The notes below the pieces were generated by a model. The model worked only from the letters and a program-made list of their open reading frames with translations. It made no database searches and had not been told where the DNA came from. The position numbers and the translations under genes were made by a program. Positions 5,942 through 59,454 of a stretch of 64,000 bases of DNA are shown piece by piece; positions within the stretch are counted from its first letter, which is position 1, and each line of letters begins with the position of its first letter. The stretch comes from Octopus vulgaris (taxonomy: Eukaryota). The stretch lies in contig OX597818.1 of assembly GCA_951406725.2 (NCBI GenBank), positions 41,230,001 to 41,294,000 on the forward strand, in the 5' to 3' direction.

Positions 5942-5977
5942 GGTATAATGTTTCGAGCAAAGCTCTTCTTCAGAAAC
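5942..5977 (-). ncRNA. Degenerate minimal hammerhead ribozyme
   Basis: Minus strand reads gttt CTGAAGA a gagc-ttt-gctc GAAA ca TT atac. It lies in a ~230 bp insert after a TA run; stems I and III are decayed. Confidence 0.5.
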
Positions 5978-6058
5978 AGAGAAAAGTCCAATAGAAAAGG
6001 ACGAAAGAAATCGCTAACAATTCACATGTGGTTACATTTTGAAATATATACAAATATA

Positions 6059-6120
6059 TTATAATAAGGACATTGAATAATTACAACTGGCGTTGTAATT
6101 ATTCAATGTCCTTGTTATAA
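6059..6120. repeat. Near-perfect hairpin: 29 bp arms, 4 nt loop, adjacent to (TA)n
   Basis: ttataataaggacattgaataattacaac-tggc-gttgtaattattcaatgtccttgttataa, with 1 mismatch. Confidence 0.95.
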
Positions 6121-6733
6121 TTATATATATATATATATATATATATATATATATATATATATATATATATATATGAGGCGAAAGTGTACTTTACTGAAAC
6201 ATGTGGCCTTTGGACAACGTAAGAAATCGATATTACTTTCCAATAAGAGAGGGAAATTTTCCTTTTCAGCAGACCTAAAGTCGCCATCATTTACAGAAGA
6301 TGAAAACTAGCAACCGTAGGTTTGCGTCTTCCCAAAATATTTGATTAGGGAACAAAACTGTATCGTTAACTCAGCTTTCTGTCACTTTCCTCCTATCTCT
6401 TCCTGAAACAGAACATACTATTGATGTTTTTATGTTGTCGTTTTATCCTTAAAAATGATATAAAAGAAAACTCCGGTTGGGTGTTCTTGATTTAATCAAC
6501 GACCGCGTTTTTGACTGTTCTTTTACTACCACTTCAATTTATTATTTCATTTTATTAGCTCCTTTATTTTCATCTCATTTAATGTGTTTGATTGCCTTCA
6601 GTTATCTGTTCTTTTTATTACTTTCTCATCGTACTTCATTAAAATCTTTTATCAATTATTTTATTATCATCTTTTATTTGCTATTTTAAATATGCATACA
6701 TACATACATACATACATACATACATACATACAT

Positions 6734-7069
6734 GGTGGCTGCCCCCTCGTTATCGAGTATGGCCATTGCACGAAGCTTAATCAATGTTGTTATCGTGCAA
6801 TGCCTGTGCAAGAGGAATTTTTTTAAAGTGAGGAAAGGCTGTGCACTGAGTCAATCCCACTCACTAAGCAACAGCAACCATAACCCGAAAAGAAGAACAA
6901 GTCAACATCATTGGTAACCACTGAGCCGCAGGTTTTATGTCGGAGTTATCCCAGTTACCTGAGTTACCTTCTCCTAGAAGGATGCCCTAACAAAGGCTAG
7001 GAGTCCTTCACTCCCAATGGTTTAACTGCGCGATCGGGTATTCAGTACGATTATTTCTATGTCCCCGCG
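6734..7069 (-). mobile_element. ~336 bp RTE-related short retroposon (family D), embedded in (CATA)n
   Basis: Near-identical inverted copy at 25073-25408. Contains 'agcctttg..agggcatccttctaggagaagg', which resembles the RTE 5' UTR motif, and a 3' stem attgcacga...tcgtgcaat. Confidence 0.75.
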
Positions 7070-7666
7070 CATACATACATACATACATACATACATACAT
7101 ACATATATACATACATAAATAAATACATACATGCATATATACATACATACATACATACATGCATACATACATTCATACATACATACATACATACATACAT
7201 ACATACATACATACATACATACATACATACATACATACATACATACATACATCTTTGAAAATCAAAGAGAAAAGGATAACTATGAACAACTGCTTCGAAA
7301 TGCCTAACTGCCAGTCTTGATATACCAACTGATTCGCACATTACAAATACATTCTGTAATCGGAACAGTAAAACTATGCAAGACTTTTCTCAGGTTTAAA
7401 ATGTGACATTGTTTTCGTTATCAACATTTCAAAGATGGAGCTTTGCACCTTTGTTAGAAGTCAGCCCCTTCTTCAGAGGAAGAATTTAAATGATTAGCTA
7501 CAGAAAAGACATACATACATACATACATACATACATACATACATACATACATACATACATACATACATACATACATACATACATACATACATACATACAT
7601 ACATACATACATACATACATACATACATACATACATACATACATACATACATACATACATACATAC
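7070..7666. repeat. Two (CATA)n arrays (7070-7251 and 7510-7666)
   Basis: Seen directly. Confidence 0.97.
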
Positions 7667-9069
7667 GGATGGTAACAAAGTTGAAGATCAGTGAAGAAGA
7701 GAATGCCTATGCTGGACTATTAAATGATTAAATACGGAAGACATACATACATATATACATAGGGAATGAGACATTTTGCAGCAGTAATTCCGTTGCCCTT
7801 TTCCACCAACCACTTTCCTGGACTGTCTAAAGATTAAGAGCATAAATACTTGAAGCTTATATTAAAAGTAACTAAGATGTTTTGTTTTTTTCTGTGTAAA
7901 ATTCAGAGGTTATATCGAACAAACCACGTTATTATTACACAAAAGATCGAAGTTAGTAAAGGGAGGTAAGTAGTAGACAGATTAAAATAGCATATAGGAA
8001 GACATAGACACAGAGAGAAACCAACAAACACCCTGAGGAATCGATCAGTTTCGGAAATAATGCAATACAGAAATATACATGCTTCCTTAGTCAAAATCGA
8101 TGAATTGACATCGAATATACTGGCCTGCGTATCTAAACCTACATTTGAGTCTTAGGAATTATGCTGCTGAAACACTATTGGCACCGTGTGTTGGATATTT
8201 ACATAAAATGTTTCGCCTTACGAAAAGCAAAAAATAAGAAAATATAAAGAACTATCTTTAATCTCACCGCTGAACACGTATTTGGCGACGTAAACTTTTA
8301 AAGTTTCAACACGCTACGGAACAAGTCCATCAAATTGTTTGTTCAGCTGAAGACATTATTAGCTATAGCTAGTTATAACTTTTCAAGTTATATGCTCGTT
8401 TTAGATGGTTCTAGCGTGACGCGTTGAGTGTGAACAGTCAGCAAAGAGTTTGCGTGTGTGAGTGTGTTTGTGTGTGTGCGCGCGTATGACAGAGAGTGGG
8501 GTGTTTATAGCGTGGAGGTATTTGAATAATTTAGACTCCATACCGTCTGATAATTACAGCTGATTGAATGATGCTTTAACGAATCCATACATAGTCAGAC
8601 AATCGTTGCATCAGATTAATTAATAGAGACATAAATTGTAAACAGACAGATAGATAGATAGATAGATAGATAGATAGATAGATAGATAGATAGATAGATA
8701 GATAGATAGATAGATAGATAGATAGATGGATGGATGGATGGATGGATAGATAGATACTGCATACACACATTCATATTATCCATGCGTTCATACTTCTATA
8801 AATACAGGCGTACATATTTATACATGTATACATACAAACAAACACACACACACATATATACACACACACACATATATACACACACACACATTTGACCTAA
8901 GTGGGGGATGGACTAACCAAGTTCAACAGAAATTTGGGGCAGAGTAATTCATCAAAACAGCAGATAGCCACTAAACCATTCTATACCAGAGTGAAAGATA
9001 TCAGCTAATATTATCTGTAGCTGCCCAAAAGTCTCCCGCAGATATTACCTTCGCATCAGGCATAATATT

Positions 9070-9476
9070 CTTTTCTATTCTAGGCACAAGGCCCGAAATT
9101 TTGGGGGAGGGAGCCAGTCGATTACATCGACCCCAGTACGCAACTGGTACTTAATTTATCGACCCCGAAAGGATGAAAGGCAAAGTCGACCTCGGCGGAA
9201 TTTGAACTCAGAACGTAAAGACAGACGAAATACTGCTAAGCATTTCGCTCGGCGTGCTAACGTTTCTTATTTCTTTATTACCCACAAGGGAGCTAAACAT
9301 AAAGGGAACAAACAAGGACAGACAAAGGGATTAAGTCGATTACATCGACCCCTGTGCGTAACTAGTACTTAATTTATCGACCCCGAAAAGATGAAAGGCA
9401 AAGTCGACCTCGGGGGAATTTGAAACACCGCCAAGCATTTCGTTCAGCGTGCTAACGTTTCTGCCAGCTCGCCTTC
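9070..9476 (-). mobile_element. tRNA-derived SINE family A, dimeric copy
   Basis: B-box 'gagttcaaattcc' and core 'gcctttcatcctttcggggtcgataaattaagtacc' each present twice. Imperfect ~17 bp TSD gcatcaggcataatatt / gcatgaggcataacatt. Confidence 0.9.
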
Positions 9477-57316: not shown

Positions 57317-57972
57317 TCTTTTATTCTTTTATTTGTTTCAGTCATTTGACTGCGGCCATGCTGAGGCCCCGCCTTGATAGATTGTAGTCGAACAAATCTA
57401 TCCCCAGAACTTTCTCTTAAAGAGTAGTATTTATTCTATCGGGCTCTTTTGCCGAACCGCTACGTTACAGGAATGTAAACACACCACCACCGGTTATCAA
57501 ACAGTGGTGGGGAACAAGCACATACACTATGTCAGACACACATAGATATAAGCATATATATATATATATACGGCGTAAATATATATGTATATATTGTTTT
57601 ATTTATATATATATATATATATATATATATATTTAAATATATACATATACATGTGTGTGTGTATGTGTATTTATATATATATGTATGTATACATATGTAT
57701 GTAAATATATACATATTTATATATATATATATATATATATATATATATATATATATATATATATGTATATATATGTATGTATGTATGTATGTGTGTATGT
57801 ATGTATGTATATGCTTGTGTGTCTGTGTTTGTCGCCCCACCATCGCTTGACAACCGATGTTGGTGTGTTTATGCAAAAGAGACCGATAGAATAAGTACTA
57901 GGCTTACAAACAATAAGTCCTGGGGTCGAATTGTTCGACCAAAGGTGGTGCTCCAGCATGGGCGCAATCAAA
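57317..57972. mobile_element. Two SINE B 3' halves in opposite orientation (57317-57525 on -, 57815-57972 on +) around a microsatellite
   Basis: Both match the family B tail region. Confidence 0.8.
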
Positions 57973-58419
57973 TATATATCTGTAAATATATATATATATA
58001 TATATGTATATATACATATAATAACAATATATATATATATGTATAATAACAATAACAAGCAAGTGAATGTTAAAAATAACAATATACACATGCAGACATA
58101 TATATATATATACGGTGGCGTTGCCCCAGCATGACCACAGTTCTTGAGCTTAAACTAGCTCAATTCATTTAATTCATACATATATACATACATATATATA
58201 TTTTTATACATATATATTTATGTACATATGTGTGTGTGCGTGTGTGTGTGTGTGTGTGTGTGTGTGTGTGTGTGTGTGTGTGTGTGTGTGTACAGTAAGC
58301 TTGCATATATTTATTGTATCAAAACTCGGCAGTCTCCTCCCGGTTTCGCAACAGTCGTGAACAGCCAAGAGCAAACTTTGAAATACACATTAAGCTCTTT
58401 GTATAATAACTATAACTAT

Positions 58420-58687
58420 TTCTGTTGTGTCTGGGGAGAGTCATTCTCTTTTAGTACCTTTTTATTTAACACACTCACCGGTAAAATTTCCACTTATTTC
58501 GTCATTTTATTTTCCTAAAATTTTCGTTGCGTCTTGCAACCTTTTCAATAGTCTTGACTTGAAAAGGTTGCAAGACGCAACGAAAATTTTAGGAAAATAA
58601 AAAGACGAAATAAGTGGAAATTTTACCGGTGAGTGTGTTAAATTATAAGGCACCAAAAGAGAATGACACTCCCCAGACACAACAGAA
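58420..58687. mobile_element. Long palindrome: ~129 bp arms, 10 nt loop
   Basis: Arms are near-perfect reverse complements. A solo terminal fragment occurs at 55472-55519. Confidence 0.93.
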
Positions 58688-59182
58688 TATGCTTCAACAC
58701 TCGAACTCATATAAAGAATCTTGCAAACCAAATCCAAAAACGAAATATAACTATTTCCTTTATTTAATTTATCCATAAGCTGCCCATAAATATGTCTGTC
58801 CAACGCACTGCCTTCTATGTAAGGATAAATGTGCACTAGCTAAAGTACTTTTATATACTTTACAACTGTTACAGTATGACATACCCATGTGTATGTGTGT
58901 GTGTGTGTGTATGAGTGTGTGTGTGTGTTCGTGCGCGCGTGAATATTTGCATATATATGTATGTACGTATGTATGTGTGTATATATATATATATAGGCAA
59001 TAATAAATATACGACATCGTGAAGTATATTTGCCACCTAAATGTGGCTGAGCCATATGGTACGATGCTACTTTTGTTTATAGCCCCAGAAATAGATGCCA
59101 ACTCGAAACGTTAGTGCTGTAAAATACGCAAACGACATTCCGCTGCACGTTGCGATGTGCCTACTGTCTATTTAATGCTATA

Positions 59183-59225
59183 CAGTAATCCCTCGCCATA
59201 TTGCGGTTCACCTATCGCGGTATAT
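59183..59225 (+). mobile_element. pogo/Tigger-like TIR end
   Basis: TA + CAGTAATCCCTCGCCATATTGCGGTTC. The partner end was not seen. Confidence 0.5.
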
Positions 59226-59368
59226 TATTTAAGCTTACGTCGATTCCTCTCTGGTGTTGTTTTGCATTTATAATAAAATAAATATACACCAATTTATAAA
59301 AATGATATATATATATATATATAAGTAAATAAATGGAGTTGGACGCAGGTGTTATTCAAATTCTTTTA

Positions 59369-59454
59369 CTTTCGACATATGTTTCGAAGACAACATTGGT
59401 TTTATTCCAAATGAATAAACGATGTAAAATAATGTAATCTTCTCATCAGGAAAG
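59369..59454 (-). ncRNA. Intact type-I hammerhead ribozyme (GUC site)
   Basis: Minus strand reads ctttc CTGATGA gaaga...[long stem II]...tcttc GAAA c-atat-g TC gaaag. All core nucleotides are canonical and stem III is palindromic (acatatgt). Confidence 0.88.

Follow-up and report, generated by a model that had tools for sequence, protein, structure and literature searches.

We analysed a 64-kb window of the Octopus vulgaris genome (assembly GCA_951406725.2, contig OX597818.1, positions 41,230,001–41,294,000, forward strand), which has a G+C content of 36% and plentiful simple repeats, and in which a first-pass annotation had noted eight hammerhead ribozyme cores, mostly beside TA dinucleotide tracts. 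All eight cores are present, the positions first given for them lying near the low end of each motif. We name each core, and the repeat family to which it belongs, by the start of its CUGANGA sequence, and list the eight elements here together with their first-look candidate counts, which are unscored genome matches to each window element.

5840..6062, minus strand, core 5973: repeat of about 220 bp between TA tracts with a minimal type I hammerhead (3706 candidates)
12615..12735, plus strand, core 12676: fold-back stub of an old family (148 candidates)
27672..28091, minus strand, core 27855: about 1.3 units of a tandem, retrozyme-like repeat without open reading frames, unit 304–336 nt (116 candidates)
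28433..28586, minus strand, core 28570: 154 bp read, from TA on both sides and open reading frame linkage, as the 3′ terminus of a Hydra-type Penelope-like element (319 candidates)
41088..41243, plus strand, core 41125: old low-copy family (6 candidates)
44094..44298, minus strand, core 44242: old family (435 candidates)
45226..45558, minus strand, core 45433: fold-back insertion (19 candidates)
59324..59492, minus strand, core 59449: read, from family search, descriptor and open reading frame linkage, as a fragment from the 3′ end of a Hydra-like Penelope element (1889 candidates)

The eight motifs are real, mostly decayed copies of eight different repeat families. Judged from sequence, these type I hammerhead-shaped motifs very probably represent eight unrelated families: 59449 and 28570 form the 3′ termini of Penelope-like elements (PLEs) with reverse transcriptase (RT) and GIY-YIG endonuclease (EN) open reading frames (ORFs), a third lineage of this kind likely terminates in 5973, and 27855 is likely a retrozyme passenger. 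The evidence in hand is that the motifs belong to families, that some of these are linked to ORFs, that 3′ ends are fixed and, in the young families, flanked by TA, that 5′ truncation is variable, and that inverted partners occur.

The cores were compared with 150 dinucleotide shuffles of the window segments outside simple repeats. Cores followed by GAAA within 75 nt number 20 in the window and 8.27 ± 2.66 in shuffled sequence, and cores with a stem II of at least 3 bp number 6 against 1.39 ± 1.04; neither window count was reached in any of the 150 shuffles. Bare CUGANGA cores (28 vs. 20.3, reached in 8 of 150) are not unusual, and the complete type I descriptor (1 vs. 0.21, matched by 30 of 150) is not above chance. 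The shuffled control proposed in the first-pass annotation thus sets apart the cores with GAAA and those with stem II but not the bare cores or the single complete motif. The motifs were also not singled out by single-strand folding, in which no window copy was better than shuffled sequence (z from −1.68 to +1.06), and a scan of the window with Rfam was uninformative, returning only microRNA-like matches to simple repeats among the matches listed (150 of 806).

All eight motifs are, in contrast to what chance would give, multicopy in their own genome. For each family, up to 40 of the best candidates were scored and 6–30 loci were fetched, a procedure that biases the sets toward the window copy. 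In the resulting alignments, other copies regain a type I hammerhead whose stem III is short and palindromic. The strict type I descriptor (core plus stems I–III) is passed by one of the eight window copies, 59449; the 28570 copy misses it solely through a 2-bp stem II and is nearly intact, and the remaining six are decayed according to the descriptor and to alignment with their family copies. The family forms of 5973, 28570, 44242, and 45433 pass the descriptor, and those of 12676, 27855, and 41125 are recognized by alignment only. Pairwise comparison of the eight element bodies found only words of 9–18 nt in common, which bears out the earlier description of the cores as mutually unrelated. 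Further CUGANGA...GAAA pairs with partial stems, absent from that annotation, occur at 8033 (plus strand), 23811 (minus strand), 7476 (minus strand), and 21408 (minus strand).

The hammerhead in the window copy of the 59449 family is type I and intact; it has a stem II region of 56 nt, a palindromic stem III, and a GUC site, and is predicted from the motif to be cut after 59375. In longer copies of this family the upstream sequence reads as the end of a GIY-YIG EN. A genome search with the EN protein from this family gave 14,815 first-look candidates, of which 150 matches were scored, and at all 30 loci fetched (the best 30 of the 150) a hammerhead element, partial in two cases, lies approximately 240 nt downstream on the same strand. 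RT followed by a C-terminal GIY-YIG domain was found upstream of the terminal repeat at five loci (L167, L169, L170, L171, and L174). L174 and L167 show the RT motifs DKT, FDI, and YRDD as well as the C-terminal EN, with DKT recorded in place of DKG in one copy, L174, which an atlas placed with RT/HTH_animal clusters (score 0.95–0.97). The CxCX5C linker is missing in 28 of 29 translated copies, the single CxC being a TG-repeat flank, and an Asn-rich run takes its place; because the linker is missing, we file the family as Hydra-like and not as a strict member of the Hydra clade. Inverted partner copies are present at 7 of 20 loci. Among 33 ends, 9 stop directly at TA, 15 continue through a tail of approximately 150 nt, and 9 have other continuations; 10 of the 15 tails then reach TA, 3 reach CA, and 2 reach neither. 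Over 332 aligned positions, the ORF of this family and that of the 28570 family share 29% identity.

Three side observations concern this family. An in-frame Asn-rich microsatellite lies between RT and EN of the ORF (L167:2278-4125, L138-L166), the ends fall into two classes at approximately 45 or 200 nt past the cleavage site (L032-L050), and 2 of the 33 3′ ends (L034 and L035) lead, without intervening TA, into the 5′ part of a 5973-like unit. The last junction possibly reflects template jumping or a nested insertion from which TA was lost.

The window hammerhead of the 28570 family is near intact, with a 2-bp stem II and a GUA site, and by eye its stem I, core, stem III, and site equal or nearly equal those of the coral element Hydra-2_Amil (PMC8557442). 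Exact-word genome counts with 35-mers or 21-mers gave 6149, 5423, and 906 matches, reversed controls giving 0; the 5423 matches are those of the 28570-family 35-mer. Six widely spaced head-to-head pairs were picked from the list of these matches, and five of them have RT and/or EN frames approximately 1.1 kb upstream of the hammerhead. RT followed by a C-terminal GIY-YIG domain is seen upstream of the terminal repeat in L308, L309, and L311, and in these copies and L312 the conserved E and N residues of the EN are, by eye, surrounded by CxxC and CxH. The CxCX5C linker is present in one of five copies (L310), its second C being F in L308, L309, L311, and L312. An adjacent inverted partial copy accompanies 26 of 39 other top-scored copies. 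As to the structure of the 3′ region, an internal (TA)n tract lies approximately 135 nt upstream of the hammerhead stub (L308:3655-3957), short copies of approximately 290 nt start directly after this tract, and inverted partners end at position 88, direct copies at position 154 (L002-L030, L308-L313).

The 5973 window copy is decayed at stems III and I. A sister subfamily that is 70–78% identical to it is, with 17 matches in 15 of the 80 stretches, the commonest hammerhead repeat of our genome sample. Copies of the 5973 type mostly begin at one point and are mostly stubs of approximately 215 nt; they are monomers, a direct repeat being found at 1 of 20 loci, and 4 of the 68 copies reaching the 5′ part continue upstream in common sequence. 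In one copy of the sister subfamily, L307, an EN that has a frameshift and a C-x4-C-xx-C linker lies 1.3 kb upstream, across CA-rich DNA. The Neptune/Nematis-type CX2-5CxxC linker was seen in this single frameshifted copy, which has no Pfam match and whose EN-end motif we take, tentatively, to be of that type. Beside the window copy, a 73-bp near-perfect palindrome (6054-6126) lies between the element and a TA tract. The ORF at 5419-5775 was considered as a host exon and rejected, being a degenerate sequence present in multiple copies (35 matches, the majority of which contain stops).

In the 27855 family, direct repeats with a period of 304–336 nt were found at 6 of 15 loci, and the window copy exceeds one unit; its cleavage triplet and stem I are decayed. 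The longest stop-free run in four units is 47–104 codons. With an ORF-less tandem unit within 170–400 nt that carries one type I hammerhead, the family agrees with the definition of a retrozyme and is likely a non-coding passenger, although its copies are old and only 65–80% alike, and the tandems seen are partial. Among the other older families, the 12676 window copy has a stem II broken by a small duplication, whereas family copies regain stems II and III and a GUC site; the 41125 copy retains stem II, with stem III and the cleavage site decayed; the 44242 copy has lost the GAAA of its family form, in which stem II is 5 bp long and the site is CUU; and the 45433 copy has a weakened stem II, its family form being a type I hammerhead in which stem I has 6 bp and the site is AUU. 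These four are probably older waves of the same PLE process.

The association with TA tracts was assessed in the window, in the families, and in a genome sample. Seven of the eight window cores lie within 210 nt of (TA)6, the eighth, 27855, being at 539 nt, against a background of 27% of positions within 200 nt and 32% within 250 nt. For the families we scored the presence of (TA)4 after the 3′ anchor, counting copies without the anchor as misses and leaving out 41125. It was present in 28 of 29 copies of the 28570 family, 10 of 19 of the 5973 family, and, directly, 6 of 19 of the 59449 family (background 1.6%). In the genome sample, 17 of 26 motifs have (TA)4 within 250 nt on the 3′ side, compared with 18.8% for background.

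This sample comprised 80 evenly spaced 10-kb stretches (800 kb), picked blind, with 20 block shuffles as the null. The strict descriptor found 23 motifs, compared with a mean of 1.05 in the shuffles, which corresponds to approximately 27 intact-looking motifs per Mb (about 1 per 35 kb), or approximately 77,000 in the 2.8-Gb genome (Poisson range approximately 47,000–117,000, the true range being wider because matches clump). The window, with 1 strict motif in 64 kb, is ordinary for the genome. The 128 unique motifs in the 1.55 Mb fetched form 29 clusters, and the 26 of the even sample form 16. Together with the two families tied directly to RT and EN ORFs and a third tied to an EN remnant, these clusters agree with the earlier suggestion that many independent Penelope-like or retrozyme-like families are present.

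When core position 4 was left free, it was U in 91 motifs, C in 36, G in 1, and A in 0, and descriptors that require CUGANGA would miss 7 of the 23 intact motifs (approximately 30%) of the 800-kb sample. In one 5973-like subfamily the core reads CCGACGA in 4524 of the 6149 matches, and among the first 100 listed motifs of the 28570 family 31 have C4, of which none has A at 11.1, compared with 68 of the 69 with U4 (hand count); RNA reads of a relative have C4 in 52 of 55 and 23 of 28 reads of this family. Because C4 is tied to other subfamily letters (11.1), we rejected CpG change alone as the origin of U4C, and because the EN-linked L307 carries it, we also rejected its restriction to non-coding passengers. 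We found no publication on U4C in PLE hammerheads. A 2017 study by Lunse et al. reportedly describes PLE hammerhead variants that cleave as dimers and may already list U4C, and we do not claim that the variant is unpublished. The published Hydra table (PMC8557442), whose descriptor required CUGANGA, contains no C4 motif; U at position 17, which we had considered as a novelty, is common in it and was rejected as such. A core variant reported in PMC4209133 is U3-A8 and not U4C. U4C is reported to reduce in vitro activity and yet to permit infectivity of viroids (PMC3088659). In this genome, U4C is fixed in large subfamilies, with thousands of copies, of two unrelated Penelope lineages (one Hydra-type, one likely Neptune/Nematis-type). 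We offer only tentatively, and with more doubt than belief, the idea that damped or lost cleavage favors spread while the fold is kept as a signal for RT recognition or dimer formation.

From what is known of PLE biology, the copies would have arisen by the element EN nicking (TA)n and RT starting at the 3′ end of the RNA and usually stopping early, and therefore the last 150–300 nt, which hold the hammerhead, would be the commonest leftover. Fold-backs would represent the usual inverted, 5′-truncated partner. In a source element the hammerhead would trim precursor RNA arranged in tandem, probably by dimerizing through its short palindromic stem III, and scattered single copies would mostly be inert fossils. 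When RNA runs X23 and X24 and contig runs were compared with the 59449 and 28570 families, neither a pile-up of molecule ends nor a back-joint was found; these reads lie on both strands with fixed differences from the genome, representing pooled copies of a relative, and are uninformative on cleavage and circles. Several observations weigh against the PLE interpretation. (TA)4 follows the 3′ anchor in only 1 of 14 copies of each of the 12676, 44242, and 45433 families and in 0 of 14 of the 27855 family, so that the placement of cores beside (TA)n described in the first-pass annotation stands for the window (seven of eight) and for the 28570, 5973, and 59449 families but not for these four. TA targeting thus holds for the three ORF-linked families and is not visible in the other four, in which, being old, the TA tract may have decayed. 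No ORF link was found for 12676, 27855, 41125, 44242, or 45433 within 1.5-kb flanks, and that of 5973 passes through the subfamily that is 70–78% identical to the window copy. No PLE protein tested matched Pfam, and the Hydra and Neptune/Nematis clade calls come from motifs compared by eye with a published alignment (PMC8557442), with no tree.

Three other explanations were weighed against the same data. Most units could be free retrozymes that spread through small circular RNAs, with PLE ORFs merely supplying the enzymes. The tandem units of 27855 and the greater than unit length of its window copy, some 45433 loci that repeat at approximately 500 nt, the common starting point of most 5973-like copies, and the known mollusc retrozymes of 350–390 bp (PMC7229834) are all in keeping with this; however, 59449 and 28570 lead straight into ORFs, and 5973 copies are monomeric and have a long form, and we therefore regard free retrozymes as an unlikely explanation for most units. 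Considerably less probable is a host regulatory layer that cuts intronic pre-mRNA, an effect at which the first-pass annotation had hinted. The density of intact-looking motifs and the frequency of head-to-head pairs might suggest such a layer, but six of the eight window copies are decayed, CpG-type decay is seen in cores, and a single minimal PLE hammerhead was not cleaved in vitro (PMC4209133). Head-to-head partners, moreover, lie on opposite strands, and there is therefore one sense motif per transcript. No host exon was identified in the 64-kb window.

That the motifs are chance matches in an AT-rich, repeat-rich window is next to inconceivable for the set as a whole. Such matches would produce the near-null count of bare cores, a single full motif that shuffles equal in a fifth of cases (30 of 150), and the unremarkable folding scores, but they would not produce eight of eight multicopy families in which other copies regain pairing, 23 motifs where 1.05 are expected, or a free core position that is almost always U or C. 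Chance is thus refuted for the set, and 41125, with its 6 candidates, is the least secure single case.

Two EN ends had also been claimed in the window, at 40115 and near 45020. The former gave no tblastn match with two Hydra-type proteins, and genome-wide matches to the region span just 40322-40700, which is another old repeat; the claimed EN end was not confirmed. The latter and a further remnant are as follows.

44652..45159, minus strand: TA-flanked repeat of about 490 bp with an EN-like phrase near 45020 (3658 candidates)
62420..62626, minus strand: weak Hydra-type GIY-YIG EN remnant, absent from the first-pass annotation (tblastn E 0.07–0.24)

The EN-like phrase of the 490-bp repeat contains stops common to its copies. 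The same repeat has a conserved CUGACUGA half-core, a non-canonical CUGAYUGA near 44751, and GAAA upstream instead of downstream, and is possibly a rearranged hammerhead. Elsewhere in the window, an abundant repeat resembling short interspersed elements (14014-14511, 16505-16890, and 37204-37606) contains near-identical spurious ORFs, and at 21027-21257 a long inverted repeat of purine/pyrimidine triplet tracts with a loop of approximately 45 nt scores below threshold on several microRNA hairpin models.

The system, which the first-pass annotation called hidden, is known biology. PLE hammerheads have been described as many heterogeneous families, mostly single, truncated, and of low activity (Cervera and De la Pena 2014, PMC4209133), and hammerheads and (TA)n insertion are both features of Hydra PLEs, as seen in Hydra-1_Obim of Octopus bimaculoides (Craig et al. 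2021, PMC8557442). The elements studied here share with Hydra-clade PLEs a C-terminal GIY-YIG EN with a CxxC..E..N..CxH end, DKT and GLYRDD-type RT motifs, a 3′ type I hammerhead, (TA)n insertion, an inverted 5′ partner, and frequent U17. The window families are distinct from Hydra-1_Obim, for which another hammerhead is listed, and the 59449 family differs from the clade in that an Asn-rich run replaces the CxCX5C linker and in its 56-nt stem II region (PMC8557442). As with the minimal hammerheads in the pseudo-long terminal repeats of metazoan PLEs (PMC4209133), each genome holds numerous unrelated families, for the most part as single motifs of truncated PLEs, with opposite-strand pairs 100–700 bp apart, an extra base between 9 and 10.1, and a palindromic stem III; our estimate of approximately 77,000 intact motifs compares with 2,000–9,000 per genome in that study, the descriptors being different.

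Retrozymes occur in mussels and in axolotl, which has 126,247 motifs (Cervera and De la Pena 2020, PMC7229834), and an origin from PLEs has been argued for them (Li, Clavereau and Pollet 2026, 10.64898/2026.07.22.740005). The 27855 family resembles metazoan non-LTR retrozymes in its ORF-less tandem unit of approximately 300–350 nt with one type I hammerhead and in the co-existence of PLEs, and differs from them in its partial tandems and old, diverged copies. The 5973-like L307 shares the CX2-5CxxC linker and C-terminal EN with Neptune/Nematis-type EN+ PLEs (PMC8557442); this lineage, compared with those elements, has one frameshifted EN remnant, a 1.3-kb CA-rich 3′ region, and mostly stubs of approximately 215 nt. 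A 2026 annotation of the repeats of Octopus vulgaris counts 31 Penelope-like families with recent activity, and ribozymes do not figure in its main text (PMC13282606); in the main text of cephalopod repeat papers generally, Penelope elements are mentioned and ribozymes are not.

The present finding adds families and a density estimate to this known association. Both the role of PLE hammerheads and the domain that aims the EN at microsatellites have been stated to be open questions (PMC8557442), and natural pairs of U4 and C4 subfamilies, as well as families with and without the linker, provide material for addressing them. If our reading is true, the U4C subfamilies and the linker-less, TA-ending Hydra-like family would make both PLE hammerhead function and microsatellite targeting testable with natural pairs.

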